From Candidatus Coprovivens sp. (lineage in GTDB: Bacteria > Bacillota_I > Bacilli_A > RF39 > UBA660), in assembly GCA_051886175.1 (NCBI GenBank), contig JBJEXV010000066.1, forward strand, positions 8,996 to 72,995: a stretch of DNA of 64,000 nt, read 5' to 3'. Position 1 is the stretch's first letter. Every line of letters begins with the position of its first letter. Under the pieces are notes generated by a model that made no database searches, had not been told where the DNA came from, and was given only the letters and a program-made list of their open reading frames with translations. Below are positions 4,198-51,074 of the stretch, in pieces. Position numbers and translations under genes: made by a program.

Positions 4198-4262
4198 CAC
4201 TATAAGAACAAATGTTCTTGATGGTGTTTTTTTCTTTTGTTATAATTATGTTAGGTGGTTTA

Positions 4263-9873: not shown

Positions 9874-9894
9874 TTAAATTTAAGGAGTGTGAGT

Positions 9895-28337: not shown

Positions 28338-28340
28338 GAG

Positions 28341-28607: not shown

Positions 28608-28609
28608 GG

Positions 28610-32345: not shown

Positions 32346-32373
32346 AAAGAACAAGCACTTGTGCTTGTTTTTT
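32346..32373 (+). terminator. intrinsic terminator after thrS
   Basis: aacaagc-actt-gcttgtt followed by T5. Confidence 0.75.
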
Positions 32374-32441
32374 GTCTTTTAATATTGATATTAAACTCTT
32401 ATTAAGTTATAATTTAATATATAATAAGGGTGTGTATCAAT

Positions 32442-35400
32442 ATGAAAATAATGTTAATGGATCAGGTTAAGTTAGTTAATCTGGTATTACCAAGAGAAGT
32501 TTTTGGTAACTATTGGGTAATAAATGCAGATAAAGATAACTTAGTTAACGTAGAAGCTATAGATGGTAATTGGATACTAAAAAGTAATAGTGAGATTAAG
32601 GTATTCAAAGATGGAACTCCTGTTAATGAAATAGCATTAGAGGAAGAAAAATTCTATACATTAAAGAACGTATTATTAGGTCAAAGTTATGTAATATATA
32701 CATCTCCTACATATGATAAAAATACAATGCAATTATGTATTGGTAATATAGATAATGCAGTATATTATATTGGTAATAATAATGCACCTGCTAATGGTAA
32801 TGTAGCACAAAACATTATTTCATATGAACAAAATGGATTTGCTAGAAATCAAATTAAAATTACTGTTCAAAACGGATTATATAGTGTAATAAATTTAAAT
32901 CCACAAATGCCAATGTATATTAATGGTTTATTAAAGACTCAAGATTATTTAAAATATGGCGATAGTATTTTTATCTTAGGTTTTAAATTATCTATTGTTA
33001 AAGATATATTTATGGTTAATAATCCAAATAAATTATTAAAGTATGATGCTAAAACTTTTATAACTAGATCTTTACCAGTTTTAGATTTTAATAAAATATC
33101 TAAAGAAGTAGATCCAGCAATAGAAATGTATAAAAAAGAAGATTATTTCTTAAAACCTCCTAGATTCGATGAAAAAATTGAAGAGAAAGAATTAATTATA
33201 GACCCACCTCCTGCACCACAAAAGCAAGAGGAAATGCCTGCTATTTTAACAATGGGTTCAATGATTATGATGGGTATGAGTTCTGTAATGAATGCAGTTA
33301 CTACTTTAACAGGTGTTTTAAATGGTACTGTAGAACTTAAAACAGCGTGGCCTTCATTGTTAACTTGTTTGGCGATGTTAACATGTATGTTGGTATTACC
33401 GACTGCAACTAAAATGTATAACAAACATAAAAAGAAAGTTTATGAACGTAGAAGACAAGCTACATATAGAGATTATGTAGAGAGAAAAAGAGTAGAGTTC
33501 TTAACTGAAATGAAGAGACAACAACAAATTTTAATTGAAAAATATATTCCATTAAAAGAAGTTGGAGATGTTATCTTATTTAAGAAACGTACTTTATGGG
33601 AAAAGAATATGGACGACTATGATTTCCTATCATTAAGATTAGGTATTGGTTCAATTCCACCTTTCTTCCATATTAACTTTCCTGATGATCACTTCTCAAT
33701 GGATGCAGAAGACAACTTAATGGGATTGTTAAGACAATTAGAAAAAGAAACTGAATATTTAGTAAATGTTCCTGTTACTTATTCTTTTACTAAGAAGTTT
33801 GTTACAGGTATTATTGGTAAACGTGATGTAACTAATCCTTTTATTAGAGGTTTATTATTACAAATGTTTGCTTATCATGGATATGATGATTTAAAAGTTT
33901 GTGTATTTACAAGTAGTGAGAATTCTAAGTTCTGGGAAGAAATACAAAACTGTCCTTATTTTTGGGATGATAATAAAACATTAAGATTCTTTGGTACTAA
34001 TATAGATGATATTAATCACATTAGTTCTTACTTAGAAGAATTATTAGCACAAGTAAGAGAAGCTAATGAAAGTAATGCAGGTACTGAAAAGAGAATAGCT
34101 AAGTTACCTAAACGTTTCGTTATTATGATAGATGATATCGATTTGGTACGTAACGTATCTATTATTAGAACAGTTCTTGAATCTACTGAATATTTAGGAA
34201 TTAGTTTAATTATTTGTACTGAAAAATTAAACTCATTACCAAATGAAGTTGAACACTTTATTAGTGTAGATGAACGTAGTGGTGGTATTTTCGAACGAGT
34301 ATTAACAGATGGCAAGAGAATTAACTTTACTCCCGACTTTATGTTTGCTTCATTAGAAAAATATGTATATGTTATATCTAATATACCTATTGCATTAAAT
34401 GGTGGTAAGTATGTATTACCTTCAACATATACATTCTTAGAAATGTATAATGTATCTAATGTTAACCAATTGAATTGTTTAAGTAGATGGAAAGATAATG
34501 ATCCAATTAACTCTTTAGCAGCTCCAGTAGGTGTTAATGAATATGGTGAATTATTTAACTTAGATCTTCATGAAAAAGCACATGGTCCACATGGACTAAT
34601 TGCTGGTATGACAGGTTCTGGTAAATCAGAATTTATTATTTCGTTTATTTTAAGTATGGCAGTTAACTTCCATCCAAATGAAGTACAATTCGTACTTATC
34701 GATTACAAAGGTGGAGGATTAGCAGGTGCATTCGAAAATAGAGAAACAGGATTAAAATTACCTCATCTAGCTGGTACAATTACAAACTTAGATGTTAATG
34801 GTATTAATCGTTCTTTAGCTTCATTACAATCAGAGTTAAAGAGAAGACAAGCAGAGTTTAATAAAGCTCGTGATGCTGTAGGTGAATCTACAATTGATAT
34901 TTATAAATATCAAAGATTATATCGTAGTGGTAAGGTTAAAGATCCTATTGCTCACTTATTTATTATTTCCGATGAGTTCGCCGAATTGAAAGCACAACAA
35001 CCTGATTTCATGGATGAGTTGATTTCAACAGCACGTATCGGACGTTCACTTGGTGTTCACTTAATTCTAGCGACACAAAAGCCAAGTGGTGTAGTTAACG
35101 ACCAAATTTGGTCAAACTCTAAATTTAAAATCTGTTTAAAAGTTCAAGATAGATCTGACTCTCAAGAAATGATCAAGAGACCAGATGCTGCTTCATTAAA
35201 AGAAACTGGTAGATTCTTCTTACAAGTTGGTTATGATGAATTCTTCGCATTAGGTCAAAGTGCTTGGACAGGAGCTCCATATTATGAATCAGATGTTCGT
35301 AAGAAGAAAGTTGATAATACAATTTCATTTGTTAACAACTTAGGTGCTCCAATTAAAGTTATGGATGATGGAAAACAAAGTTTTACAGGTGTTCTTAAAG

Positions 35401-37088
35401 GTGAAGAGTTACCAAATATTATGAAATATATGGTTGATTTATCTAAGAAAGAAAATATTCAAGTAAAACAATTGTGGTTAAATGCATTACCACCTATCAT
35501 TTATATTGATGGATTAAAAGAAAAATATGAATATAAGAAAATTGATTGTGATATTAATCCGGTTATTGGTGAATACGATGCTCCAGATTTACAAAAACAA
35601 GGATTACTTACTATGCCAATTACTCAAGGTGGTAACTGGATAATCTATGGTATTGCTGATTCTGGTAAAGATGAAGTTGTTAACTCAATAGTTTATTCTT
35701 GTATTACAACTTATTCTCCTGTTGAATTACAAATGTATTTAATGGACTTTGGTGCTGAAACATTACGTATGTATAGAAAAGCTCCACAAGTTGGTGATGT
35801 TGTATTCCAACAAGATGCTGATAAGGTAACTAATTTAATTAGAATGATAAGTTCTATTATGGAACAAAGAAGAAAGTTATTTGCTGATTACGGTGGTAAC
35901 TATATTAATTATTGTAAGACTAGTGGTAAAGTATTGCCTAATATAGTAGTTATCTTAAATGGTTATGAAACATTTAGTGAAAACTATGGTGATTCAACAT
36001 TTGATAGTTTAATTACTATTACTCGTGACTGTCAAAAATATGGTATTTATTTCATTATGACATGTGCGAGTGTTAATGGTATTAGAAGTAAATTAGCTCA
36101 ATATTTACCTAACCATTTAGTATTACAAATGAATGATAAGTATGACTATTCTACATTATTAAGTAGAACTAAGTTAGAACCTGCTGCATTCTCTGGACGT
36201 GGTTTGGTTAAACTAGATACAGTTTATGAATTCCAAGCAGCTGTACCAGTACAACAAGAAGAATTAAATACTGTTGTTTCTGCGAAGATTAAGGAACTAT
36301 GTGAAAAATATAAAACTAGTGCTCCTAAGATTCCAGTATTACCAGAAATTGTTACTATTTCTTATTGTGCTGATAATAATAAGGGACTTCAAGGAATGCC
36401 TGTTGGTGTTGAAAAAGAATCTCTTGCGATTCGTACATTAAATTTCACAAAGAACTTAGAACATACAATTACTGCATTAGAATTTGATACATTAGTACCA
36501 TTTGGTAAGATGTTTATTAAACAAATTGGTAAGAGTTTAGGTAAGAATGTTTATGTGTTCGACCCTGATAAATACTTTGGTGATATAGCAGCGGATGTAT
36601 CATATTATGATTCAAATGTTCCAAATTGTTATAAGCAATTAGTTGAATTTATTAATAAAATGTATGATGAATTTGCAGCTGGTGGATATGATCCTGCAGC
36701 TATTAGTAAATACGGTGAATACGTATGTGTTATAGCTGGTATTGATAAATTTAAAATGTTATTAGGCAATGACTTTAGTTCACAATTTGCTGACTTATTA
36801 GTTAAGATTAAAGCAATGCCTAAGATGTATTTTATAATTATGGATGAAGTAGATAATATTAAGAAATTTGAATACGATACATGGTATAAAGCTGTTGTAT
36901 CTCCTACAAGAGGTATTTGGGTTGGTGAAGGTATGTCAACACAATTTACTCTTAAATCTACATTATCTGCTAGACAATTATCTGCTAAGATTGATAACAC
37001 ATTCGGTTACTATGTAGATGGTAGTGTTACAGTATTAGTTAAATTGATTACAGATGTTGGTGAAGAAGACCAATATGAGTCATTATAA
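32442..37088 (+). CDS. essC: type VII secretion FtsK/SpoIIIE-family ATPase EssC/YukB
   Basis: N-terminal FHA-like region (LVLPREVFGNYWV, typical EssC start). Hydrophobic pair around aa 270-330. D1 Walker A GMTGSGKSE with Walker B FIISDEFAEL, D2 GIADSGKDE, and a degenerate third domain. 1548-1552 aa depending on start (GTG 32430 or ATG 32442). Confidence 0.9.
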   Translation: MKIMLMDQVKLVNLVLPREVFGNYWVINADKDNLVNVEAIDGNWILKSNSEIKVFKDGTPVNEIALEEEKFYTLKNVLLGQSYVIYTSPTYDKNTMQLCIGNIDNAVYYIGNNNAPANGNVAQNIISYEQNGFARNQIKITVQNGLYSVINLNPQMPMYINGLLKTQDYLKYGDSIFILGFKLSIVKDIFMVNNPNKLLKYDAKTFITRSLPVLDFNKISKEVDPAIEMYKKEDYFLKPPRFDEKIEEKELIIDPPPAPQKQEEMPAILTMGSMIMMGMSSVMNAVTTLTGVLNGTVELKTAWPSLLTCLAMLTCMLVLPTATKMYNKHKKKVYERRRQATYRDYVERKRVEFLTEMKRQQQILIEKYIPLKEVGDVILFKKRTLWEKNMDDYDFLSLRLGIGSIPPFFHINFPDDHFSMDAEDNLMGLLRQLEKETEYLVNVPVTYSFTKKFVTGIIGKRDVTNPFIRGLLLQMFAYHGYDDLKVCVFTSSENSKFWEEIQNCPYFWDDNKTLRFFGTNIDDINHISSYLEELLAQVREANESNAGTEKRIAKLPKRFVIMIDDIDLVRNVSIIRTVLESTEYLGISLIICTEKLNSLPNEVEHFISVDERSGGIFERVLTDGKRINFTPDFMFASLEKYVYVISNIPIALNGGKYVLPSTYTFLEMYNVSNVNQLNCLSRWKDNDPINSLAAPVGVNEYGELFNLDLHEKAHGPHGLIAGMTGSGKSEFIISFILSMAVNFHPNEVQFVLIDYKGGGLAGAFENRETGLKLPHLAGTITNLDVNGINRSLASLQSELKRRQAEFNKARDAVGESTIDIYKYQRLYRSGKVKDPIAHLFIISDEFAELKAQQPDFMDELISTARIGRSLGVHLILATQKPSGVVNDQIWSNSKFKICLKVQDRSDSQEMIKRPDAASLKETGRFFLQVGYDEFFALGQSAWTGAPYYESDVRKKKVDNTISFVNNLGAPIKVMDDGKQSFTGVLKGEELPNIMKYMVDLSKKENIQVKQLWLNALPPIIYIDGLKEKYEYKKIDCDINPVIGEYDAPDLQKQGLLTMPITQGGNWIIYGIADSGKDEVVNSIVYSCITTYSPVELQMYLMDFGAETLRMYRKAPQVGDVVFQQDADKVTNLIRMISSIMEQRRKLFADYGGNYINYCKTSGKVLPNIVVILNGYETFSENYGDSTFDSLITITRDCQKYGIYFIMTCASVNGIRSKLAQYLPNHLVLQMNDKYDYSTLLSRTKLEPAAFSGRGLVKLDTVYEFQAAVPVQQEELNTVVSAKIKELCEKYKTSAPKIPVLPEIVTISYCADNNKGLQGMPVGVEKESLAIRTLNFTKNLEHTITALEFDTLVPFGKMFIKQIGKSLGKNVYVFDPDKYFGDIAADVSYYDSNVPNCYKQLVEFINKMYDEFAAGGYDPAAISKYGEYVCVIAGIDKFKMLLGNDFSSQFADLLVKIKAMPKMYFIIMDEVDNIKKFEYDTWYKAVVSPTRGIWVGEGMSTQFTLKSTLSARQLSAKIDNTFGYYVDGSVTVLVKLITDVGEEDQYESL

Positions 37089-37116
37089 AAAACAAGCGAA
37101 ATACGCTTGTTTTTTC
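37089..37116 (+). terminator. intrinsic terminator immediately after essC
   Basis: acaagcg-aaata-cgcttgt followed by T5. Confidence 0.75.
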
Positions 37117-37139
37117 TCGTTTTTATGCGAAGTGGTTTG

Positions 37140-37168
37140 TTGACTTATACTTGATTTTAATGTATTAT
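37140..37168 (+). promoter_or_regulatory. sigma-A promoter for the yukD-to-DUF4176 operon
   Basis: TTGACT (37140-45), 17-nt spacer, TATTAT (37163-68). Confidence 0.6.
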
Positions 37169-37209
37169 TTATAGTATAGGACAGTAGATGTTAAGAATGG
37201 AGTGCTTTT

Positions 37210-37464
37210 ATGAATAATAAAGTATGTGTAGAATTGATTGTTCCTGCTATAGAGGAACGTTACAATGTTTTTATTCCTATAAATAAGAAAACATTAGAGG
37301 TTATATATTTACTTAGTAAAGCAATCAATGAAATGTCTAACGGTTTTTTTGAAATTTCAAACAATGTATCATTAATTAATGGTAGTACGGGTTTGAATTA
37401 TGATGTAGATAAAACATTTTTGGAAAACGGTATATTAAACGGTTCCAAAATTATACTAATGTAA
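37210..37464 (+). CDS. yukD: YukD/EsaB-like ubiquitin-fold T7SS protein
   Basis: 84 aa. KVCVELIVPAIEERYNVFIPINKKTLEVIYLL...LENGILNGSKIILM matches the EsaB/YukD beta-grasp pattern and size. Confidence 0.75.
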   Translation: MNNKVCVELIVPAIEERYNVFIPINKKTLEVIYLLSKAINEMSNGFFEISNNVSLINGSTGLNYDVDKTFLENGILNGSKIILM

Positions 37465-37477
37465 GGAGGGTTGTGTT

Positions 37478-37783
37478 ATGTACAATACTGTTTTTGATTA
37501 TAATTTTGCTGTAGATGAAGAAAAGTTAGGGATTGTTTGTGATACTATGACTGGAAAAGCAAATGAAGTTAGAGAACTTGTAGATTCTATTTATAATATT
37601 ATAAATAATGATTTGTCTAACTATTGGAAAAGTACTTCTTATGATAATTTTAGAGACACTTGTAGTAAATATAGGGTAGGATTAAATGAACTAGCTAATA
37701 TGATTGAGTTGTTTGGTAGTTCAGCTCAAAGTATAAGCGAAGCAGCTGGTGAAATGTTTACTGGCATTAATAGTAAATTTTAA
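37478..37783 (+). CDS. WXG100-like small helical protein (WxG degenerated to W-K-S)
   Basis: 101 aa helix-turn-helix hairpin. The central LSNYWKSTSYDNF corresponds to the WxGxxxxxF turn. Confidence 0.6.
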   Translation: MYNTVFDYNFAVDEEKLGIVCDTMTGKANEVRELVDSIYNIINNDLSNYWKSTSYDNFRDTCSKYRVGLNELANMIELFGSSAQSISEAAGEMFTGINSKF

Positions 37784-37805
37784 AAGGAAATAGAAGGTGA
37801 AGAAT

Positions 37806-39377
37806 ATGAGTACAGGACAAGGAGCTGGCGCTACTAACGGAGATTTTTTTGATTATACTGGTGTAAAAAGTTGTATGGATTCGTTAGATCAAAAATTTTC
37901 TGAGTTTGCTGAACTATTAAGAAGTGTTAATGATTATATGAATGATAATATTCATATTGACCATAATTCTGCTATATTTGGATTGTTAGGAGAAAAATTT
38001 TTGAACGACTGGAATGAAAATGCATCTACTTTTGGTGATTTTTATGAAAACTTCTCTGTATGGAATCAATTAATGGTTAACATAATGAATCAATACGGTG
38101 GGTTTGATGATGCGGCAGTTAAAAATGCAATTGGTCAAAATCAATCTAGTGGGGCTACACTTGCTGGTGTTGCAGAAACAAGAGCTGCAATTTGGGAAAA
38201 TAATCAATTACAAGATTTTAAGGAGGCTAACTTGGTTGCAGGTGCAAACGGAGTTGTTGAAGAAGGCGTTGTTAATAAAGAAATTTTATATGATGGATAT
38301 GAACAATATACATATATAGATGGAACTGTTGTTACTTATGAAAAAGCTGGTGATGGCAGTGTTCAAAGAATGATAGTTGAAAATGTAGATGGAACTATCG
38401 ATACTAAATTAGTATTAGAAGACGGCGGAATGGTTATAGAAAGATATGACGTAAATGGTAAAGCTTATTCTTCTGATATTGTTGGAGCAAACGGAGAAGT
38501 GTTGGCAACTAGAAATTATACTGATGATTATAAAAATGAAACTATTACATTCTATAATGCTGACGGAAGTAAGGATACTATTAAAATATATGATGATTCT
38601 ATTCCTTGGAATACTGGCATGAAAAATGTTACAACAACAGATATGGTTATGCATAGTGATGCTTTTCAACAATTGTTTTATGGTAAAGATGCTAGAAATA
38701 TTTCGAGTGGTGAAATTCTTGATATTACAAAGAGTGCAGTAGTTGAAAATAATCTTGAACGTGATTTCTCAACTGGTGTGAAAACTGCTGATACTTTATC
38801 TCAACATGGAACTTCAACTGATATTTTAGATAACGGATATACTCCTCATTATGCTGATAGATATATTGATAAAAGTGAATTGTATTCTACTAACGAACAA
38901 AAACAAATTGATGCTATTATAGATTATAGAAAAGGGGCACCGGTTGAAGCAGTTCAAGGGCATGATATTGAAGCGGTTAGAGATTCTTATAGAACTAACG
39001 ATATGGCTGATTCTTATGGTCAACAATCTGCTGCGTTCCAAGGTGGAAAAGGAACTACTAGACCTAGTGGTACGGATGGTAATGTTACTAGTGGAAATAC
39101 TGTTTTATATAATTCTGGATATAATACTACAATGCCAAGTAAAACAGATGAAGAAGGGGTAACTAATCCTGCATATAATAACGGAGTTCCTGTTACTGTT
39201 CCAAATGCAATGGATGATGAAAAAGTTGAGGCTTCGACATTGGTATATAATCCTAATACTGGCGAATATACAGTTCAGCCAGTTCCATATAATCCAAGCG
39301 ATGAGGCTCAACTCGTTTTGTTAGGTCAAGATAATAACGATAATGGACAAAGTGGTCCTAAGGTATATAGCTGTTAG
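37806..39377 (+). CDS. putative T7SS substrate: WXG100-like N-terminal domain, short YD-like beta-hairpin repeats, unknown C-terminus
   Basis: SD GAAGGTG before ATG 37806. N-terminus LDQKFSEFAELL...FLNDWNENASTFGDF. Repeats YTYIDGTVVTYE, IERYDVNGKAY, TFYNADGSKDT. No signal peptide or TM. Confidence 0.55.
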   Translation: MSTGQGAGATNGDFFDYTGVKSCMDSLDQKFSEFAELLRSVNDYMNDNIHIDHNSAIFGLLGEKFLNDWNENASTFGDFYENFSVWNQLMVNIMNQYGGFDDAAVKNAIGQNQSSGATLAGVAETRAAIWENNQLQDFKEANLVAGANGVVEEGVVNKEILYDGYEQYTYIDGTVVTYEKAGDGSVQRMIVENVDGTIDTKLVLEDGGMVIERYDVNGKAYSSDIVGANGEVLATRNYTDDYKNETITFYNADGSKDTIKIYDDSIPWNTGMKNVTTTDMVMHSDAFQQLFYGKDARNISSGEILDITKSAVVENNLERDFSTGVKTADTLSQHGTSTDILDNGYTPHYADRYIDKSELYSTNEQKQIDAIIDYRKGAPVEAVQGHDIEAVRDSYRTNDMADSYGQQSAAFQGGKGTTRPSGTDGNVTSGNTVLYNSGYNTTMPSKTDEEGVTNPAYNNGVPVTVPNAMDDEKVEASTLVYNPNTGEYTVQPVPYNPSDEAQLVLLGQDNNDNGQSGPKVYSC

Positions 39378-39394
39378 AAGGGTGGTAATAGGTT

Positions 39395-39628
39395 ATGGGT
39401 AGTTTAAATATTAAAACATTAGGTAATAATATTGAAAAAGTTCAAAATGTGATCAGAGCGTTAGAAACTGTAAAAACTGATTGGCCTGATTTTGTAAAAA
39501 CCGATCAATCCTTTTACGATGAATTTATGAATGATATGGAAAAATTAATAAATGATTTAAAAACATTTAAAACCAATTTAGAAGATTGCGGCGAAAAAGC
39601 TGACCAATATGCTGACTGGGTTGTGTAG
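39395..39628 (+). CDS. small helical protein (77 aa), candidate T7SS partner/chaperone
   Basis: SD AAGGGTGG. Two predicted helices around DWPDF. It lies directly upstream of the 907-aa protein. Confidence 0.5.
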   Translation: MGSLNIKTLGNNIEKVQNVIRALETVKTDWPDFVKTDQSFYDEFMNDMEKLINDLKTFKTNLEDCGEKADQYADWVV

Positions 39629-39640
39629 GAGGTGTAGAAA

Positions 39641-42364: not shown

Positions 42365-42385
42365 AAAGGATAGGAGAAAGTTGGA

Positions 42386-42823
42386 ATGAAAGAAAAGTAT
42401 TTACCAATAGGAACTGTAGTTTTATTAAAAGGTGGAAAGAAAAGAGCAATGATTACTGGATTCTGTTCAGTAGCTCAAGAAAACCAAGATAAAATATATG
42501 ATTATAGTGGATGCGTATATCCAGAAGGATATTTGAGTTCTAATCAAGTATGTTTATTTGATCATGACCAAATAGAAAAAGTATATTTTGAAGGTTTCGT
42601 TGATGATGAAGAAATTCAATTCAAAGAAAAATTAAATACTATAGTTGCTAATTTAGAAAATCAAATGTCTGCAGATGCTGCAGCAACAACTCCAGCAACA
42701 GAAGAAACTACTTCTGAAGCTCCTGCTGAAATCCCTACTGTTGATACACCAATTGGTGGTTTAGGGAATTTAGAAGGTGAAGCAATTACTGAAGATTCTG
42801 ATATCAAACCATTCGGAGAATAA
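42386..42823 (+). CDS. DUF4176-like protein (T7SS-associated) with an acidic Ala/Thr/Glu tail
   Basis: KYLPIGTVVLLKGGKKRAMITGF...YDYSGCVYPEGY...LFDHDQIEKVYFEGFVDDEE matches the DUF4176 consensus pattern. Confidence 0.7.
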   Translation: MKEKYLPIGTVVLLKGGKKRAMITGFCSVAQENQDKIYDYSGCVYPEGYLSSNQVCLFDHDQIEKVYFEGFVDDEEIQFKEKLNTIVANLENQMSADAAATTPATEETTSEAPAEIPTVDTPIGGLGNLEGEAITEDSDIKPFGE

Positions 42824-42849
42824 AAAAGCCATTATATGGCTTTTTTTTA
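42824..42849 (+). terminator. intrinsic terminator
   Basis: agccat-tat-atggct followed by T8. Confidence 0.75.
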
Positions 42850-42858
42850 TTATCTTTA

Positions 42859-42887
42859 TTGACTATAATGTGAAATTTTTGTAAAAT
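42859..42887 (+). promoter_or_regulatory. sigma-A promoter for the esxA unit
   Basis: TTGACT (42859-64), 17-nt spacer, TAAAAT (42882-87). Leaves a 5' UTR of about 115 nt. Confidence 0.6.
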
Positions 42888-43002
42888 GATATTATAAGGA
42901 TATGGTGATAGTCAAGAGGGTTTTGGAACTAACCTACATTATATTCTTTATATACTAGAAGTGTATTCTTATAATTGATGAAAATTGGATGGAGGTGCAA
43001 TT

Positions 43003-43308
43003 ATGGGTGCATTAAGAATGGAAAGTGGAGAATTACGTAATCTAGGAAATGAAATTAAGAGTAATGCTAGTAGCTTTAATTCATTAATTTCTCAATTCCA
43101 ATCAGAATATGAATCTCTAACAGCTAATGGAACTTGGGAAGGACCAGACTCAGTTACATTTGCTCAAGCTGCTGCTAACTTTAAGGCTGACTTAGATAAA
43201 GCTGCTCAATTAGTAGAAGAAGTTGGTCAAAACTTAGTAACAACTGCTGATAACTACGATTCAGTACATGAAAGCGTAAACTCAAGCATCAATAGTATGT
43301 TAGGATAA
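43003..43308 (+). CDS. esxA: WXG100 protein, EsxA-like
   Basis: SD GGAGGTG before ATG 43003. 101 aa. Canonical central turn GTWEGPDSVTFAQAAANF (W-x-G). Confidence 0.85.
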   Translation: MGALRMESGELRNLGNEIKSNASSFNSLISQFQSEYESLTANGTWEGPDSVTFAQAAANFKADLDKAAQLVEEVGQNLVTTADNYDSVHESVNSSINSMLG

Positions 43309-43368
43309 TATCTAACAAAACTATAACTAACCAAAAAACAAAAAAATATTATAAGTGAGGTGACACAG

Positions 43369-43671
43369 ATGAATGTTTTTGAATATACAACTTTCTGTGA
43401 AGTTTATGAAAATTTAAAGAAAACTATCGGTACTATGGAGGATGCTGATCCAAGTACAGTTGGTGGAGTTATCAAATCAAGTGATACTCAAATTAATAAA
43501 GGATTAGACTACGCTGCAGATTCTTCTTGGGCTGCTTCTAAATTAGCTGCTTGGAATGAAATGCTTCCTGGTTTAAAAACAAATTTCGAAAACTTAATCG
43601 TTTTATTAAACAACGCAAAAAATGCTGCTGATAAATATAACGAATTCGAAAAAACAAATTCAGGTATGTAA
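43369..43671 (+). CDS. WXG100-like partner protein (EsxB-like position)
   Basis: SD GTGAGGTG before ATG 43369 (track GTG 43360 is also possible). 100 aa, helical, SSWAASKLAAWNE turn. Followed by two hairpins (43675-43745). Confidence 0.55.
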   Translation: MNVFEYTTFCEVYENLKKTIGTMEDADPSTVGGVIKSSDTQINKGLDYAADSSWAASKLAAWNEMLPGLKTNFENLIVLLNNAKNAADKYNEFEKTNSGM

Positions 43672-43765
43672 TCCTATGTACTACTGTTGTAGTACATTGT
43701 AAGTTGCTAAACAGTTAGTTTGGCAATTTACAATGTACTATATTTTTTAGAAAGATGGTGTTTAT

Positions 43766-45046
43766 ATGGCTTGGGATTTTACGGTTGATAGTGATATCCA
43801 GTTAGATATGGCGAAATATTTGAAGGAGAAAGCAGATGAACTAGATACTCAATTTGCAAATTTATATACACAAATTGGACCTAGTAATCTTGGAACTCAT
43901 TGGGTTGGTAGTGATTATGATGCATTCAATGTGGGATGTGAAGGTTATAAACAAGCTTTAGATGATATGACTGATTCTGTCCGTATGTATGCCAGCCATT
44001 TTGAAAAAGTTGCCGAAGGAACTGATTTATTATCTTCTCTATGTATTTCAATAGTACAAAATATGACAACTAGAGGAGATGCATTACCAGGATCTGGTGG
44101 AGCTGTAAGTACTACTGGTGGAACAGGAACTACTGGAACAGGAGGTACTACTACAGGTACTGGTGGTAATGGCCAAGGAACCGGCGGTAATGGAACTACT
44201 GCTGTGACTGGAGGAACTGGTCAAGGAACTGGTGGAAATGGTACAGGTACTACTGGTCAAGGTGGAACAGGATTTAGAGGAGGTTCTACTGTTCAAGGTG
44301 GTACTGGCGGTAACGGAACTACTGGACAAGGAAATGGCGGTGTAGTTGGAACTGGAGGACAATCGTTGATTGGACAAGGAACTGGTGGAAATGGTACGGG
44401 TACTACTGGTCAAGGTGGAACAGGATTTAGAGGAGGTTCTACTGGTCAAGGTGGCACCGGAGGTAACGGAACTACTGCTGTGACTGGAGGAACTGGTCAA
44501 GGAACTGGTGGAAATGGAAATCAGCAACAAAGTCAACAAAATCAACAACAAAAACCTGGATATTGGCAACAACAAGGTCAAAGATATGTTGATGATTGGA
44601 ATGACTTTACTGGCGATGTTTCATATACATGGGGTAAAGCTAATGGCTTGATTTCTGGAACATATGCGTTAGCAGAAACAGGTGTTGAAACTAGTTTATT
44701 TGTTGCTGACACTGCTATTAATACTGTTCAAACTGGAACTGATATGATTCAAAGTGGTGCTAACTGGTTATTTGATGCTTTTAATAGTCGTTCAGTTGGA
44801 AATGGCGATTACTGGAGTAATATAGGAAAAGATTATGCTGAAAACTTCGATTATTCTACTTGTGATAATTTTGCTGAAGGTTTAGGTGTGACTTTATGTG
44901 CTGTACCTCGTACAGTAGTAGATATTGGTCAAACAGTTATTAATGCTGGTGCTGATGCTATTGAATTTGTTGGAGACGGAGTGTCTTGGTTAGGAGATAA
45001 GGTTAATGATGGTGTAACATGGCTTGGTAACTTTATCTTTGGATAG
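43766..45046 (+). CDS. putative T7SS effector: WXG100-like N-domain, Gly/Thr/Gln repeat linker, about 150-aa C-terminal domain of unknown function
   Basis: N-domain with THWVGSDYDAF (W-x-G). Repeats GGTGQGTGGNGTGTTGQGGTGFRGGST. Q-rich stretch. C-terminal domain with repeated W-L-(G/F) and small-residue-rich amphipathic segments. Confidence 0.6.
   Translation: MAWDFTVDSDIQLDMAKYLKEKADELDTQFANLYTQIGPSNLGTHWVGSDYDAFNVGCEGYKQALDDMTDSVRMYASHFEKVAEGTDLLSSLCISIVQNMTTRGDALPGSGGAVSTTGGTGTTGTGGTTTGTGGNGQGTGGNGTTAVTGGTGQGTGGNGTGTTGQGGTGFRGGSTVQGGTGGNGTTGQGNGGVVGTGGQSLIGQGTGGNGTGTTGQGGTGFRGGSTGQGGTGGNGTTAVTGGTGQGTGGNGNQQQSQQNQQQKPGYWQQQGQRYVDDWNDFTGDVSYTWGKANGLISGTYALAETGVETSLFVADTAINTVQTGTDMIQSGANWLFDAFNSRSVGNGDYWSNIGKDYAENFDYSTCDNFAEGLGVTLCAVPRTVVDIGQTVINAGADAIEFVGDGVSWLGDKVNDGVTWLGNFIFG
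44186..44520 (+). repeat. interleaved long direct repeats inside the Gly/Thr-rich coding tract
   Basis: A 50-bp exact repeat occurs at 44192-44241 and 44468-44517. An about 80-bp repeat occurs at 44222-44300 and 44375-44454, with 2 mismatches. Confidence 0.85.
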
Positions 45047-45069
45047 AATGAATAGAAAGGGATATAGAT

Positions 45070-45435
45070 ATGGATAATAATGAAAGTAAATTGCTTGGTA
45101 TGGAAAGATGTGTAATTTTACAAGCAATAGCTGAAAATTACTTAATTAGAACTACTGGGAAACATTTTGATGAGGCTTATCCTGAAGTTCAAGAAGAATA
45201 TGGTGTTCTTCTTGAACAACACATTCGTTTATTAAAAGCTTATTTGAATGAAGAATATGCAGAAAGAAATTTAAATTTAAACGAATGTATTAGAAGATCA
45301 GGTGAAACTGCTATTCTTGATGATAAATTAACTGACTATGAAGTTAAAGCACTTATTAGAAATGCTGATTTAGTTTTATCTACTTATGTAATGGTAGAAG
45401 AAAGAAAGAAAAAACTTTGGAAAAAAGAAGCTTAA
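45070..45435 (+). CDS. hypothetical cytoplasmic helical protein (121 aa); immunity or chaperone candidate
   Basis: SD AAAGGGA. No TM or signal peptide. Lies between two large putative substrates. Confidence 0.45.
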   Translation: MDNNESKLLGMERCVILQAIAENYLIRTTGKHFDEAYPEVQEEYGVLLEQHIRLLKAYLNEEYAERNLNLNECIRRSGETAILDDKLTDYEVKALIRNADLVLSTYVMVEERKKKLWKKEA

Positions 45436-45483
45436 TTAATAAATTTGATTTTTATATAAAAAAATTAAATGGGAGGTATAAAT

Positions 45484-47172
45484 ATGTCTGAAAGAAAATT
45501 TGATTATAATAACGTCGGAACTGTCTATAATCAAATGAAAAATATCAACGATAATATTAAGAATTTGTTAACTGATACTGATAATGAAGTTCATAATAAA
45601 GTTGATGTTTGTGAAGAAGCTATTTATGGAGATTTAGGTAATCAGTTGTTATTATCTTGGGATAATATTTCATCTAATTTTCCAAACTTTGTGGACAATT
45701 TTGAAAATTGGTCTGCATTAGTTGCTAAAGCTTCTGGTGATTATTCTCAATTCGAGGCGGATGTTGCTGCATTTAAAAATGCTAATCCACTTGGTGTTAC
45801 AAGTGCTGGAGCAACACAAGGAGCAGTTGCTACTTCATCTTATAATAATAGTTTAACTGCTGAAGAAATTGCTGAATTAGATGTAGCTACAGTGTTCTAT
45901 GAACCTACTGGTGCTACTTATATCGATACTGGAATGGTTGAATATGCTAAACAACATAAGACAATGAATATTGTAGGAGATGTACTGAATGTAGTTTCTA
46001 TTGCACTTGCTGCTGTACAAGTTGGATCTGCTGTTAAAGCTGCAAGTTCGGTTGTTCAAGCAGGTACTCAAACTACTGCATTAGCTGTTGTTGGTAATAG
46101 TGCTGATGATGCTGCATTAGCTGTTGTTGGTAATAGTGCTGATGATGCTGGTAGATTAATGTTAACTGCTGGTGCTAATAGTGCTGACGATGTTGGTTTA
46201 GCTGTTGTTTCGAGTACAGCTGATGATGCTGCTGCTGCAGGTGCTAAAACAACTGCACAAGCTGCTGCTGCTAATTTAGGCGACGATGGTCTTAATGCTG
46301 CTGGAAAAGCTGCTGCTGATCTTGGTGATGATGGTATAAAAGCTGCTGGTCAGGCTACTGCTTCTAATTTAAGCGATGATGGTTTAAAAGTTCTTGGAGA
46401 AAAAATTGGAAAAGATGGTCGTAAGTTCATTAGAGTTAAAAATGCGGATGGTGGTACAGATTTGATAGAAGCTGCTACTGGTAGAAGTACAGTTCGTGAT
46501 ATTACATATTCTGCAGATGAATTAAAGAGTATTGGAATCAATGTTGGGGATGATGTTACAGCTAATGTTGGAACTCAAACGACTAAGGCAGCTAGTGCTG
46601 CTCCGAATGGTACTACAACTGGTCCTAAAACAACAAATACAGGTGGAACAACACCAAAAGGATCAACTGGTAGTGGTGCTGCTCAAACTGCTGCTGGTAA
46701 TACAGGTGGTACAGCAACTAATACTGCTAATGGAACTAAGACTACATGGAGTCAAAAATGGAATAATTCTAAAGCTGGTCAATGGACAAATACTCAAAAA
46801 GATAAATTCTATGGTACTAAGTTTGGTCAAAAGGTTCAAGATTCTGCCAATGCTGCAACTAATAGATTCAATAATATAAAAAATAAAGTTTCTGGTTGGG
46901 GTTCTTCTGCAAGTACTGGAGCTCAAAACTTTGGAACTAATGTTAAAACAGGTGCTTCAAATATGTATAATAGTGCTAAGACAGGTGTTCAAAATGGATA
47001 TAATTATGTTAAAGATTTAAATGCTGCTAATCCAACTTATGCTGGAAAATGGGCACCAGGTGCTGTAGGTGTTAATATAGTTAACATAGGTTATGATGAT
47101 AACCAACAATATGATCCTAATGTATATAGTAATCAACAAAATCAATCTGGCTCAAATAATCAAACTCCATAA
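45484..47172 (+). CDS. putative T7SS substrate: WXG100-like N-domain, hydrophobic segment, (A/G)DD(A/G) repeats, G/T/N-rich tail
   Basis: SD GGGAGG before ATG 45484. LLLSWDNISSNFPNF turn. IVGDVLNVVSIALAAVQVGSAV. Repeats ALAVVGNSADDA x2, then NSADDVG, STADDAA, LGDDGL, LGDDGI, LSDDGL. Confidence 0.55.
   Translation: MSERKFDYNNVGTVYNQMKNINDNIKNLLTDTDNEVHNKVDVCEEAIYGDLGNQLLLSWDNISSNFPNFVDNFENWSALVAKASGDYSQFEADVAAFKNANPLGVTSAGATQGAVATSSYNNSLTAEEIAELDVATVFYEPTGATYIDTGMVEYAKQHKTMNIVGDVLNVVSIALAAVQVGSAVKAASSVVQAGTQTTALAVVGNSADDAALAVVGNSADDAGRLMLTAGANSADDVGLAVVSSTADDAAAAGAKTTAQAAAANLGDDGLNAAGKAAADLGDDGIKAAGQATASNLSDDGLKVLGEKIGKDGRKFIRVKNADGGTDLIEAATGRSTVRDITYSADELKSIGINVGDDVTANVGTQTTKAASAAPNGTTTGPKTTNTGGTTPKGSTGSGAAQTAAGNTGGTATNTANGTKTTWSQKWNNSKAGQWTNTQKDKFYGTKFGQKVQDSANAATNRFNNIKNKVSGWGSSASTGAQNFGTNVKTGASNMYNSAKTGVQNGYNYVKDLNAANPTYAGKWAPGAVGVNIVNIGYDDNQQYDPNVYSNQQNQSGSNNQTP
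46078..46149 (+). repeat. perfect 36-bp tandem duplication (2 copies), followed by degenerate copies to about 46390
   Basis: gcattagctgttgttggtaatagtgctgatgatgct occurs at 46078-46113 and again at 46114-46149. Confidence 0.9.
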
Positions 47173-47227
47173 CTGATACTTTGATTAAATGTTGATAAAT
47201 ATAAATTTAAAATAAGGAGGAAAAATT

Positions 47228-47599
47228 ATGGCTACTGAAGAAATTGATTATTCGAAATATACCTGTACGAAAAAGAACATGCAATATACCATTATTAGTG
47301 ATGAAATCAAGAAGGATTTTGACTTCTTGCTTTCATCAAATACAATGGGCAATAAGTTAGATGAAATGTTAAATTATCTGAATACTGCTGCTGGTATATC
47401 TAATGCGTTCTATTTCGAAAATGGTGGTTCTGTACAAGATATTAACCACGTGTATGAAGAAATTAAAAACGATGTATCTCAATTAAAATCTGATCTTGAT
47501 ACTTTACATGCTGCATTTATGACTGATATTGATAACGTTAATGCAGAACTTGAAGTTAACTTTGGTCATTGGGTTGGATATAAGGTTAATGGAAAATAA
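47228..47599 (+). CDS. small helical protein (123 aa), candidate T7SS partner/chaperone
   Basis: SD AAGGAGG. Helical, ends ...NFGHWVGYKVNGK. Lies directly upstream of the 839-aa protein. Confidence 0.5.
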   Translation: MATEEIDYSKYTCTKKNMQYTIISDEIKKDFDFLLSSNTMGNKLDEMLNYLNTAAGISNAFYFENGGSVQDINHVYEEIKNDVSQLKSDLDTLHAAFMTDIDNVNAELEVNFGHWVGYKVNGK

Positions 47600-47627
47600 T
47601 ATAATGCAAAGGTTTGAGGTGATTTAG

Positions 47628-50147
47628 ATGTCAAAAGCAAAAATTGATAGTGTTGAATATGATGAATTGCGTAATCAGGTTCAATATGCCGCAGATTGTT
47701 TAGCTGAAGTTGATCAACTTTGGGGCGATAGATTTGAAGATTTGTATTATGCATTTATTACTAGTGGATATTTAGAAGATTTATATGAAGATGCAAAGAG
47801 TAATTATTATACATTGAAAAAATCTGTTAGTGCAATATCTAATGTTGCTACAGGAGCTTCATTAGGATGCGTAATAGGTTCTGTTATTCCAGGTGTTGGT
47901 AACATCGCTGGAGCAATTATTGGTGCAGTAATTGGTTTAGTATTTGGTATTTACAATTTCTGTACTACTGATCCTACATGGATTACTACTTCTAAACAAG
48001 TATTTGAACAATTATTAACAGATTGTGTTAATGGTAATAATGATTGTTATATTGGTATTACTAATATTGGGACTAAGTTATTAAATGTTCAAATATCATT
48101 AGAAGAGATTAGAACTTTGGTTAATGAATTTAACTATGCGTATGCTTCATTAGAAGATTCAATGAATGAATTCGGATTAAAAGGTCAAATGACAGATGAT
48201 GGTGTATTATTATCTGTTGATACACAAATTACTGTTGATGGTCAAACATATACAACAAGTGTTAGTGAAGCATTAAATGCATTCTATACATATCAAAATA
48301 CAGTTATGGCTGCTAGAATTGAAGCACAAGTATTATCTGAGAAATATGGTATTGAAATAGATTATGATGCATTAGTTAAAAATGCAAATGGATTTATTGT
48401 TAATACATTAAATAGTGGATTATACTCACACGAGTTTATAGATGCATTATTACCAAATTATACTCCAGATCAAGTTGGGGTTACTGATGCAGCTGCATCT
48501 GGATTGGGAATTTCTACAAGTGACTTCCAATCAGCACTAGCAAAAGCTTCAAGTATTGTTGGTGTTGGTGCTGGATTAGTTGGTGCTAGTTTTATAGGTC
48601 AAGTTGCTAATCCAAGTGGAGGAGATACTTCACAAAAATGTCCTAACTGTGGTGGAGACCCTACTAAGTGTGGATGTGGAAGTAAAAATCCTGGAGGAAC
48701 AAATGGTGGCACAACAGGAGGTACTACTGGTGGCACAACAGGTGGTACTACAGGTGGTACTACCGGAGGAATTATTGGTGGAACAACTGGTGGTACTACT
48801 GGCGGAACAAATGGTGGCACAACAGGTGGTACTACAGGAAAAGAAAATGAAAAAGAAACTGAAAAAAACGATGTTAAAATTGAAGAAGTTTCTAAAACAA
48901 AAATTCCTGAAGAAGTTAAATCTGAAATTACTAAAGATTATGATGACTTAGCTCGTAGAGAATATGAAGCTTTAGGAGAAGAAAAAATTGTTGAACGTAG
49001 AGCAAAAATTATGGATGATATTGATGCTGCTTATGAATCAGGTAACTTCAAAGATATTAAGAAAAAATTAGAAGAATATGGATATTCTGAACCAGAAATT
49101 AATGCGTTAATTAACGATAGAGATAAACTAGCAGTTGCATTAATTACTGGAGATCAAAAAGAATTTATGGCTGAAAAAGCTATGGAATTAGCAAAAGCTG
49201 ATGGAATTGAAAACTTTGAATCTACATGGGCTGAACCTGCTGAATATCGTGATTTAACTGATGGTACAGCTAATACTATAATTGCTAACATGAGTCAAGA
49301 TGAAGGTGTAAGTAAAGCTTATGAAGAATTAACTACTGCGACAACTGCTTATGAAGAAAAAGTAGAAGATGCTGTGGCTGCTGTTGAAGCTGTAGCTGCT
49401 GCTAAGACTACAATGACTGCTCTTGAAGATAAGTTTACTAAAGAATTTGGTACTTCTGATACAACTAAGTGGAGTAAAGAAGCTGTTGAAGAATATAACG
49501 AATCAGTTAAAGAGTATAACGAAAAAGTTAAAGATGCAGATGATAAATTAAAAGCTAAAGATAAAGCTAAAGAAGAATATGATGAAGCATTAGAAGACTA
49601 TGAAGATGCTAAAGAAGATTTCGAAAAACGTATTAAAGATAATATAGTAAATGATGATAGTGATACAGGAGATACTCCTGAAATGAATGGTCCTGATACT
49701 TCATTAGATGATACTCAAGGTAATGGAAACAACGGAAATAATAACAATAATAATGGAAATAATAATGGTAACAATAATGGAAACAATGGTGTTACTGGTA
49801 AACCAAATTATATTCCTGTTGATCAAGACTTCCCTGGTATCGCATTAGGTACTCCTGAAGATAATTCATTATATGCATCTGAAAATCTTGGATCTAATGG
49901 TGTATATACTGAAACAGTTGAAGTAACAGGCCAAGATGGTACTACTCAAACATTTACTAGAACTAGTGAAGGTGCTGACTTTATGAGTGGGACTCCTACA
50001 GTTACAACTGGTACAAATGGAACTGTAAGTAGTGTTGTATCTGGTGGTACTGACGCTAATGGAAATGCTCAAAAAATAGTTTCATTATCAAATGATGATA
50101 TTATGGCAGCATTATTACTACAAGAAGAAGAAGCAAAAATGAAGTAA
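47628..50147 (+). CDS. large T7SS-associated membrane protein (839 aa), paralogous in its central module to 39641..42364
   Basis: SD GAGGTG. N-terminal helical region with QLWGDRF. Gly-zipper hydrophobic stretch GASLGCVIGSVIPGVGNIAGAIIGAVIGLVFGIYNF. (GGTT)n tract. Module DYDDLARREY...EYGYSEPEI...TGDQKEFMA...KWSKEAVEEYNE...DYEDAKEDFEKRIKDNI. (N/G)n tract. Confidence 0.6.
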   Translation: MSKAKIDSVEYDELRNQVQYAADCLAEVDQLWGDRFEDLYYAFITSGYLEDLYEDAKSNYYTLKKSVSAISNVATGASLGCVIGSVIPGVGNIAGAIIGAVIGLVFGIYNFCTTDPTWITTSKQVFEQLLTDCVNGNNDCYIGITNIGTKLLNVQISLEEIRTLVNEFNYAYASLEDSMNEFGLKGQMTDDGVLLSVDTQITVDGQTYTTSVSEALNAFYTYQNTVMAARIEAQVLSEKYGIEIDYDALVKNANGFIVNTLNSGLYSHEFIDALLPNYTPDQVGVTDAAASGLGISTSDFQSALAKASSIVGVGAGLVGASFIGQVANPSGGDTSQKCPNCGGDPTKCGCGSKNPGGTNGGTTGGTTGGTTGGTTGGTTGGIIGGTTGGTTGGTNGGTTGGTTGKENEKETEKNDVKIEEVSKTKIPEEVKSEITKDYDDLARREYEALGEEKIVERRAKIMDDIDAAYESGNFKDIKKKLEEYGYSEPEINALINDRDKLAVALITGDQKEFMAEKAMELAKADGIENFESTWAEPAEYRDLTDGTANTIIANMSQDEGVSKAYEELTTATTAYEEKVEDAVAAVEAVAAAKTTMTALEDKFTKEFGTSDTTKWSKEAVEEYNESVKEYNEKVKDADDKLKAKDKAKEEYDEALEDYEDAKEDFEKRIKDNIVNDDSDTGDTPEMNGPDTSLDDTQGNGNNGNNNNNNGNNNGNNNGNNGVTGKPNYIPVDQDFPGIALGTPEDNSLYASENLGSNGVYTETVEVTGQDGTTQTFTRTSEGADFMSGTPTVTTGTNGTVSSVVSGGTDANGNAQKIVSLSNDDIMAALLLQEEEAKMK
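48694..48840 (+). repeat. 12-bp-period coding microsatellite encoding (GGTT)n
   Basis: About 12 units of ggtggtactaca-like sequence. Protein GGTNGGTTGGTTGGTTGGTTGGTTGGIIGGTTGGTTGGTNGGTTGGTTG. Confidence 0.9.
49719..49790 (+). repeat. AAT/GGA-rich low-complexity tract encoding (N/G)n
   Basis: Protein GNGNNGNNNNNNGNNNGNNNGNNG. Confidence 0.85.
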
Positions 50148-50152
50148 TTAAG

Positions 50153-50179
50153 TGATTATGCGCTTTATGCGCATAATCA
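50153..50179 (+). terminator. stem-loop after the 839-aa gene (weak T-tract)
   Basis: tgattatgcgc-tttat-gcgcataatca, then only TTT. Confidence 0.45.
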
Positions 50180-50205
50180 TTTAAAATAAATAGGTTGGTG
50201 ATGAT

Positions 50206-50637
50206 ATGATAAATAAGGATTTACCTATTGGGACAGTTGTTCTATTAAGAGGTGGATTAAAAAAAGTTATGATTACTGGATACTCTTCTGTTTCTAGAGA
50301 GGATTCAGAAAAAGTGTATGACTACAATGGTTGTATATTCCCTGAAGGTTTAATGGAAAATGTGTTTTGCTTATTTGATGCTTCTCAAATAGAAGAAGTT
50401 TTCTATGAAGGTTTAAGAAACGACGATTACGAAAATTATACAGAAAAGAGAAAATCAATGCTTGCTTCTGGAAGTTCTTATGGTAGAACTGGATATACTG
50501 AATCTAATAATAGAACTGAAAAACCTAAAGGACGTAGAGCTCGTACTGCTCCAAAACATCCAAGAAGTGCATCTGAAATGCATGCTAAATACGATGTTAA
50601 GAAGATTTCAGGCGATGGCGTAGATTACGGAGATTAG
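50206..50637 (+). CDS. DUF4176-like protein with a basic, disordered C-terminal tail
   Basis: DLPIGTVVLLRGGLKKVMITGY...YDYNGCIFPEG...LFDASQIEEVFYEG, then ...EKPKGRRARTAPKHPRSASEMHAKY. Confidence 0.7.
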   Translation: MINKDLPIGTVVLLRGGLKKVMITGYSSVSREDSEKVYDYNGCIFPEGLMENVFCLFDASQIEEVFYEGLRNDDYENYTEKRKSMLASGSSYGRTGYTESNNRTEKPKGRRARTAPKHPRSASEMHAKYDVKKISGDGVDYGD

Positions 50638-50646
50638 GAGGATATT

Positions 50647-50922
50647 ATGGAAAAGAGATTATTACCTATAGGTAGTGTGGTATTACTAAATGGTGGTACT
50701 AAAAAAGCTATGATTACTGGTTATTGTCCAGTTACTGAAGAAAATCTTGATAAGATGTATGATTATAGAGGTTGTCCTTTCCCTGAAGGAATTATGATTT
50801 CTGAAGGAAATGCATTATTCAATCATGATGAAATTAGTGAAGTTATTCACACTGGTTATGAAAATGATGAAGCTATTGATTTTATCGATAGATTAGAAAT
50901 TGCAATCGAAAAGAACAAATAA
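50647..50922 (+). CDS. DUF4176-like protein (minimal, 91 aa)
   Basis: RLLPIGSVVLLNGGTKKAMITGY...YDYRGCPFPEG...LFNHDEISEVIHTGYENDE. Confidence 0.7.
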   Translation: MEKRLLPIGSVVLLNGGTKKAMITGYCPVTEENLDKMYDYRGCPFPEGIMISEGNALFNHDEISEVIHTGYENDEAIDFIDRLEIAIEKNK

Positions 50923-50946
50923 GACTATTTTATAGTCTTTTTTTCT
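50921..50946 (+). terminator. intrinsic terminator closing the T7SS region
   Basis: aagacta-tttta-tagtctt followed by a T-run. Confidence 0.7.
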
Positions 50947-51074
50947 TGAAATCTTTTTAATAAAATATTATAATTAGTTTGACTTTATTACTTATTACAA
51001 TTGATTATTAATGTTTAAACCACTGTGGGAGAAGTCCGTAGTGGGATTTTATGATGTAGAAAAGAGGGTGGATT

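Follow-up and report, generated by a model that had tools for sequence, protein, structure and literature searches.

We analysed a stretch of DNA from Candidatus Coprovivens sp. (contig JBJEXV010000066.1; 64,000 nucleotides, hereafter the window), a taxon assigned to the GTDB order RF39 and family CAG-1000 (PMC8035907), and focused on a locus at 32385-51044 that encodes components of a type VII secretion system (T7SS). All genes of the locus are co-directional on the + strand, as is almost every gene of the window, and the G+C content of the window is ~28%. The locus is flanked by thrS (30582-32345) upstream and a gene for a UvrD-like helicase (51075-53096) downstream, with infC beyond. Two separate pig-gut assemblies, L001 and L005 (L numbers denote the sequences compared with the window), match the window at 100% identity along 8.8 and 4.2 kb, respectively; because these assemblies are independent, the window sequence is no assembly artefact. 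Our literature searches turned up no account of a T7SS in this lineage.

The block contains the gene of a membrane ATPase (essC), a gene for a ubiquitin-fold protein resembling YukD/EsaB, a pair of small genes headed by a canonical WXG100 gene, and two paralogous modules of large and small proteins accompanied by DUF4176 chaperones (Table 1). A first-pass annotation of the sequence had described a co-directional block of the T7SSb type with essC in first rather than last position; this gene order was as claimed, and most of the items listed (EssC, the 84-aa protein, the WXG protein and the DUF4176 proteins) were found where it had placed them. The same annotation had noted the lack of the membrane proteins EssB, EsaA and EssA, and this gap is the main subject of the present analysis.

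Secretion genes of the locus

EssC is an ATPase of the T7SSb type. The protein scored 993 bits against the NCBIfam model TIGR03928 (T7_EssCb_Firm; cut-off 778), remained below the cut-offs of the actinobacterial EccC models, and matched Pfam FtsK_SpoIIIE at 5.5e-44. Its closest solved relative is YukB of Bacillus subtilis (9qks, 3.6e-127). The N-terminal profile matched FHA domains, including the EssC N-termini of Staphylococcus aureus and Geobacillus, and the phosphothreonine-binding Gly-Arg and Ser-x-x-His residues are missing from this region. Hydrophobic helices were located at residues ~265-293 and ~299-326, and the two P-loops read GMTGSGKS and GIADSGKD; the FHA-like N-terminus, hydrophobic pair and P-loops proposed in the first-pass annotation were thereby confirmed. 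The true start is probably the ATG at 32442, giving a protein of 1548 aa, and this form is 100% identical to the NCBI entry named type VII secretion protein EssC of Candidatus Coprovivens sp.

The essC gene is under strong purifying selection, with a ratio of nonsynonymous to synonymous substitution rates (dN/dS) of 0.046 over 285 codons of a fragment. The full-length open reading frame (ORF) is kept in more than 100 clusters, and dozens of species retain an uninterrupted ORF of ~1550 aa whose P-loops are intact. An essC fragment with 91% nucleotide identity to the window was observed at L031 1-1022; it has a stop at codon 285 and then runs on into an unrelated large ORF; this fragment is either a pseudogene or part of a mis-binned or chimeric contig, which is labelled Bacteroidales.

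The 84-aa protein encoded downstream of essC appears to belong with YukD/EsaB, judging from its predicted fold and from transitive Pfam hits. The protein itself had no sequence match in Pfam or PDB, and profile searches likewise gave no PDB match, so that proof of YukD identity at the sequence level failed. The AlphaFold2 model is a beta-grasp fold (pLDDT 94.7) that, according to Foldseek, resembles ubiquitin-like proteins and the ubiquitin-like domains of ESX EccD (TM-score 0.80-0.82), and 5 of 50 sampled family members matched Pfam YukD; both results support the YukD/EsaB-like label of the first pass. The family comprises 722 clusters at 50% identity, and its gene comes after essC in 21 of the 24 loci in which that region was readable.

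The TWEGPDS protein encoded at 42985, read earlier as a canonical WXG protein, passed the Pfam WXG100 cut-off and is the candidate EsxA equivalent. The 37478 protein of the first module scored weakly on its own (Pfam WXG100 0.009; TIGR03930 5e-5). In 19 relatives, the yukD-like gene is followed by two small helical genes, here termed A (~102 aa) and B (~105 aa), the products of which are 12-16% identical across relatives although EssC is ~70% identical. The window (37464-37478 junction), L022 and L026 are devoid of A and B and have a 42985/43360-type pair instead. Profile-profile comparison using hhalign identified protein A of the relatives as homologous to the 42985 family (96% probability, E 1.5e-9), and the comparison of protein B with the 43360 family was weak (76% probability over 28 columns). 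Within the block, a terminator-like hairpin was also found 3' of the first DUF4176 gene; this consensus-scan hit is a pattern match only, as are the regulatory sites in Table 1.

Table 1. Coordinates of genes and predicted regulatory sites at the T7SS locus of the window
Feature	Position	Strand	Basis and remarks
Terminator-like hairpin	32346-32373		After thrS, before essC promoter-like site; consensus scan, pattern match only
Promoter-like site TTGATA-17-TATAAT	32385..32413	+	Upstream of essC; consensus scan 11/12 matches, pattern match only
essC, T7SSb-type membrane ATPase	32430..37088	+	FHA1-FHA2, linker, two transmembrane helices, three FtsK-like domains
Terminator-like hairpin	37087..37115	+	Directly 3' of essC; consensus scan, pattern match only
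YukD/EsaB-like ubiquitin-fold protein, 84 aa	37210..37464	+	AlphaFold2 fold and transitive Pfam; no C-terminal Gly-Gly
Module 1 small WXG100-family protein X, 101 aa	37478..37783	+	Family profile matches structures of EsxB/EsxA/EsxH (8.7e-7)
Module 1 probable polymorphic effector Y	37797..39377	+	Start probably at 37806; helical N-terminal domain ~110 aa, C-terminal part variable
Module 1 small helical protein E, 77 aa	39395..39628	+	~79-aa protein at same position in 16 relatives
Module 1 large disorder-rich protein F, 907 aa	39641..42364	+	Conserved central helical domain ~365-630; directly upstream of DUF4176 gene
DUF4176 (Ltc) chaperone 1	42386..42823	+	Pfam DUF4176 2.5e-28
Canonical WXG100 protein (TWEGPDS)	42985..43308	+	Pfam WXG100 5e-10, 40 bits, cut-off 27.3; likely start 43003
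Partner small helical protein, ~100 aa	43360..43671	+	In relatives always paired with 42985-type gene
Strong 20-bp hairpin	43692-43738		3' of WXG pair (42985/43360); consensus scan, pattern match only
Module 2 polymorphic effector	43766..45046	+	WXG100-family N-terminus, Gly/Thr-rich linker, C-terminal domain 262-426
Candidate immunity/partner protein of 43766 C-terminal domain, 121 aa	45070..45435	+	Co-occurrence in L021, L022, L027
Module 2 polymorphic effector	45469..47172	+	Y N-terminus, one hydrophobic segment ~165-190, variable C-terminus
Module 2 small helical protein, 123 aa	47228..47599	+	Position of E; kept before 47628-like genes in 7 relatives
Module 2 large protein F, 839 aa	47628..50147	+	Gly-zipper hydrophobic hairpin ~68-113, long disordered stretches
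DUF4176 (Ltc) chaperone 2	50206..50637	+	Pfam 5.3e-20
DUF4176 (Ltc) chaperone 3	50647..50922	+	Pfam 4.5e-25
Terminator-like site	51020-51044		3' of last DUF4176 gene; consensus scan, pattern match only

Search for EssB, EsaA and EssA

EssB, EsaA and EssA are named as core machinery in the model systems (PMC12701049). The search for them covered the 64-kb window and ±10 kb around essC in relatives. No ORF of the block matched these proteins in Pfam or NCBIfam, in agreement with the first-pass reading. Specifically, EssB/YukC gave no match to Pfam YukC or TIGR03926 in the block or among the other scanned ORFs of the window; EsaA/YueB gave no match to TIGR03929 or Pfam, and the block holds no polytopic ORF; and EssA/YueC gave no match to TIGR03927 or Pfam, with no small transmembrane (TM) protein in the block. 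The other ORFs of the window were covered by the scan or by precomputed Pfam annotation, with incomplete coverage of thrS, infC, 4212-5027, 9889-10875 and 59113-59871; those covered gave no match to any of the three core proteins and are housekeeping or function-unknown genes, including ftsK, glmS, der, ftsA, ftsZ, spoIIGA and sigE. Outside EssC, hydrophobic segments in the block are confined to the 45469 and 47628 proteins and are conserved in their orthologues. The intergenic gaps of the block leave no room for an overlooked gene, and its antisense ORFs look spurious.

Between der and thrS (26888-30055), four genes of unknown function form an insert, which encodes two weakly paralogous membrane proteins of 392 and 481 aa. 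These proteins (27159-28337 and 28610-30055, the latter with an EssB-like layout) were considered as core components and rejected, as they had no match in Pfam, NCBIfam, PADLOC or PDB and are absent from all relatives.

Scanning one genome per species yielded 26 loci, 22 of which belong to the Coprovivens clade and encode an EssC that is 69-75% identical to that of the window. The gene order in this clade is thrS, essC, yukD-like, A, B, and then a module X-Y-E-F-DUF4176; a second module, headed by a WXG pair, is often present. ORFs near essC in the relatives were scanned or had precomputed Pfam annotation, and within ±10 kb of essC the 22 loci contained no EssB, EsaA or EssA and no conserved extra membrane protein. 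Genes situated between thrS and essC in relatives were examined as a hidden core and discarded, being thioester-domain surface proteins, an aldo-keto reductase and LXG-like four-gene sets. The thioester proteins (TED_2; signal-anchor and C-terminal TM segment) occur at L014 8668-9873, L025 4226-5821 and L029 8297-9889. In L038, two 445-aa genes occupy the position in which essB might be expected; their products combine a helical N-terminus with a CW_7 wall-binding domain and contain no TM segment, and are therefore read as cargo.

Eight loci of more distant relatives (EssC 39-51% identical) each occupy a housekeeping neighbourhood of their own. In them, essC is accompanied by a yukD-like gene, with a product of ~84 aa, and by WXG100 genes; in several there is little beyond these, and many keep only essC, the yukD-like gene and two WXG100 genes. 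No match to YukC, EssA or EsaA and no conserved TM partner was detected within ±10 kb of essC in these eight loci. One distant locus, L039 (9363-18050), presents essC, then a WXG-like gene and then a giant ORF of >5081 aa that runs off the contig. The comparison of synteny across related genomes therefore revealed the same core gap in all ~30 loci examined. The first-pass annotation had left two explanations side by side, namely, a core encoded elsewhere and a reduced or alternative apparatus; the recurrence of the gap in ~30 related loci favours the latter.

Probable cargo modules and their chaperones

Each module brings together proteins of four kinds (WXG-like, polymorphic, small and helical, large and disordered) with one or two DUF4176 chaperones. 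Module 1 comprises the genes at 37478, 37797, 39395, 39641 and 42386, and module 2 those at 43766, 45469, 47228, 47628 and 50206 plus 50647. The conserved parts of the large proteins are limited: what relatives have in common is only the first ~110 aa of Y, the first 100 aa of 43766-type proteins and the central domain of F. Five large proteins had initially been credited with WXG100-like N-termini. This holds for 43766 only, the N-terminal family profile of which matches EsxB/EsxA/EsxH structures at 8.7e-7; it does not hold for 37797, 39641, 45469 and 47628, where the Y N-termini (37797, 45469) and F central domains (39641, 47628) compared with WXG100 profiles at a probability of <1%. No window protein matched LXG (Pfam PF04740) at E <= 0.1, and a weak LXG match (0.015) was obtained for the upstream gene of one relative.

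Several of these genes vary in the manner of polymorphic cargo. The 37797 protein has no match in Pfam, NCBIfam or PDB, and its N-terminus alone, which is common to 45469, is conserved in relatives. Homology of 45469 to strains L002-L004, which are 96-99% identical upstream, stops sharply at nt 45962, beyond which the C-terminal two thirds are replaced by unrelated sequence in these strains. The C-terminal domain of 43766 occurs only where a 45070-like gene follows, and this pairing is read as a toxin-immunity pattern; the 45070 gene has a dN/dS of 0.09 versus L002. The E protein encoded at 39395 is possibly a Lap-like targeting partner. In-frame tandem repeats were observed in the cargo genes at 43766-45046, 46076-46349 and 48691-48839, with Gly/Thr-rich units of 12-36 bp and one exact 36-bp duplication; such repeats could drive variation in cargo length.

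The F proteins are 25-30% identical where EssC is 70% identical. The central domain of 39641 is common to 47628 and relatives; 39641 itself has no TM segment and is a probable exported cargo. Homologues of 47628 were found in this lineage only. Its AlphaFold2 model is confident only at 415-675, a helical domain with a long hairpin, and the rest is largely disordered; Foldseek returned nothing below E 0.1 for this model and no likeness to EsaA or EssB. The minimal loci of the distant relatives have no second module, and neither do L009, L023 and L024.

All three DUF4176 proteins, already recognised in the first pass, exceeded the Pfam cut-off (PF13780), and each cluster sits after an F gene. 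DUF4176 proteins, now named Ltc, remain in the cytoplasm and serve T7SSb toxins as chaperones by binding the disordered regions of these toxins (PMC12482557; PMC13355648); the chaperone role is also attributed to PMC12478183, as cited in PMC13355648. Across species, the DUF4176 domain that follows module 1 retains 80-85% identity, versus 25-30% for F, its presumed client, which is odd for a cognate chaperone-client pair.

The 45469-47172 and 47628-50147 proteins are likely cargo rather than replacement membrane parts, because the module is duplicated and missing from several loci, 45469 swaps its C-terminus, 43766 and 45070 co-occur, and Ltc genes adjoin.

Beyond the locus, an insertion-sequence transposase (rve integrase core) is encoded at 17036-18001 on the - strand amid housekeeping genes. 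The gene at 56048-56581 encodes ribosomal protein L20 with a C-terminal Rho_N/SAP-like domain (Pfam 4.6e-9), an unusual-looking fusion.

Interpretation and comparison with known systems

We consider it highly probable that the block is a working T7SS locus, with a machinery composed of essC, the YukD-like gene, the WXG100 gene at 42985 and its partner at 43360, and with the remaining genes encoding cargo and helpers. That the machine of this lineage runs without EssB, EsaA and EssA is a conclusion we favour with moderate confidence. A further proposal is advanced tentatively: EssC, the YukD-like protein and the WXG100 pair may constitute a self-sufficient minimal machine in gut Bacilli that have a wall and form spores (RF39 and related uncultured groups), and EssB, EsaA and EssA may be accessories of the model systems.

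Cryo-electron microscopy of YukB, YukC and YukD of B. subtilis provides a structural frame for this proposal: the channel at the centre was modelled as YukB, with an outer crown of YukC dimers, and YukD is gripped between the FHA and DUF domains of YukB (PMC12637312). Since YukB is modelled as the channel, an assembly of an EssC hexamer, the YukD-like protein and the WXG pair is structurally plausible. By analogy with B. subtilis YukB and mycobacterial EccC, the EssC hexamer would form a membrane channel from its own twelve helices, the YukD-like protein would lock the FHA and DUF domains of EssC together, and the WXG100 pair would activate the ATPase and be exported. Polymorphic proteins would be recruited via their helical partners, and Ltc chaperones would hold the disordered regions of these proteins. 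On this analogy, EssC, the YukD-like protein and the WXG pair may suffice here for export. More boldly, the F proteins, which evolve fast and have a long helical hairpin, could offer a route through the cell wall.

Several points weigh against a machine without the core. EssB, EsaA and EssA are required in S. aureus and B. subtilis. EssC of the window keeps its FHA domains, which bind EssB in B. subtilis. The organism appears to be walled and spore-forming, with glmS, ftsA/Z and spoIIGA-sigE in the window and penicillin-binding proteins and spore genes in relatives, so something should help cargo across the wall, a role proposed for EsaA. The idea that the lineage, with its metagenome-assembled genomes (MAGs) labelled 'Tenericutes', has no wall was considered as an explanation for the loss of EsaA and was rejected on these window genes and on the penicillin-binding proteins, Mur ligase, SpoIIR and GerQ of relatives. 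The A and B genes of most relatives are missing from the window, and 42985/43360 as their stand-in has one good and one weak profile match. Finally, the search was limited to the window and the ±10 kb flanks, and EssB, EsaA and EssA could be unlinked or too divergent for recognition.

The requirement for the three proteins in model systems, the retained FHA domains and the range of the search would all suit an ordinary T7SSb in which essB, esaA, essA or divergent equivalents are encoded elsewhere in the genome. We regard this explanation as unlikely, for the core genes adjoin essC in canonical T7SSb clusters (Staphylococcus, Bacillus and Streptococcus), and the ~30 loci, which range from the species level to relatives of 39% identity and occupy many neighbourhoods, all proved to be without them. 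If the core were unlinked, the unlinking must be ancestral and stable.

The first-pass annotation had named the Gly-zipper protein 47628-50147, possibly with 45469-47172, as the remaining membrane candidates, which would replace the missing subunits, for instance as an EsaA-like conduit spanning the envelope. We judge this improbable. These two are the sole other block proteins with hydrophobic segments, and the F family keeps to one place in almost every locus of the Coprovivens clade and has a confidently modelled elongated helical hairpin. However, the second module is lacking in three loci of relatives, the eight distant loci showed no recognisable F-family member or conserved TM partner, the F protein of module 1 has no TM segment, and the C-terminal swap of 45469, the low identity of F relative to EssC, the position of Ltc genes after F genes (as with exported toxins) and the model of 47628 with no structural match to EsaA or EssB all argue against such a replacement. 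A decaying remnant that secretes nothing any more, as the missing core genes and the loss of A and B after yukD in this genome might suggest, is very improbable given the purifying selection on essC, its intact ORF and P-loops across dozens of species and the breadth of the YukD-like family.

If the reduced set is real, it represents the smallest natural type VII system with a T7SSb-type ATPase, and a simple construct, made up of EssC, a single ubiquitin-like protein and a pair of small secreted proteins, could be reassembled in a test host to ask what forms the channel and what the accessories add. The reduced-genome gut bacteria of this lineage would also be marked as carriers of large, fast-evolving exported proteins, which may act in competition or host contact.

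The locus agrees with T7SSb (Ess of S. aureus, Yuk/Yue of B. subtilis) in the domain order of EssC (FHA1-FHA2, then two TM helices, then three FtsK-like domains), in an EssC that passes the curated T7SSb model, and in the presence of a separate YukD/EsaB-like ubiquitin-fold protein, WXG100 proteins, DUF4176/Ltc chaperones beside large exported proteins and small helical partner genes beside cargo genes. It differs in the absence of EssB/YukC, EsaA/YueB and EssA/YueC at the locus, in having essC first and not last, in its small core proteins, which form a non-identical pair with 12-16% identity between species, and in the lack of a window protein that passes Pfam LXG.

Streptococcal LXG/Lap/Ltc modules (TelA-E; LXG1-CT3 of Streptococcus suis) likewise combine helical partners, a polymorphic protein, DUF4176/Ltc and sometimes an immunity gene, and TelE shares a glycine-zipper membrane segment. 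The modules described here differ in that their conserved domains are not recognisable as LXG, the conserved part of F is central and not N-terminal, the Gly-zipper lies near the N-terminus, and no membrane immunity protein follows 47628.

The absence of the core had been treated as unprecedented, a view that does not stand, as the variants T7SSc-j without EssA, EssB and EsaA were described by Garrett, Higginson & Palmer in 2024 (PMC11217815). Like the present locus, these variants are built on an ATPase (TsxC), a ubiquitin-like protein (TsxB) and a WXG100 protein (TsxA). Each has its own extra partners, namely, a kinase, phosphatase, FHA protein, vWA protein, AAA+ ATPase, propeller or Ig-rich protein (PMC11217815); searches of the block with Pfam yielded no Ser/Thr kinase, PPM phosphatase, DUF6382-FHA, vWA, AAA+ ATPase, DUF5050 propeller or Ig-rich protein. 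A PP2C gene at 62491-63234 lies 11.5 kb downstream, directly after rlmN, in the usual housekeeping arrangement. The 'relatively simple' T7SSg has two WXG100 proteins and an ATPase without FHA domains (PMC11217815), whereas the EssC described here has FHA domains; its FHA2 lacks the phosphothreonine-binding residues, as in T7SSb, a likeness that sets it apart from T7SSc-j. Variants without the core are thus already published, but none matches this gene set. Only RefSeq genomes entered the T7SSc-j survey (PMC11217815), whereas MAGs are the sole source of this lineage, and if the present reading of a reduced apparatus is true, the catalogue of T7SS variants extends into uncultured gut lineages that were invisible to a RefSeq-based survey.

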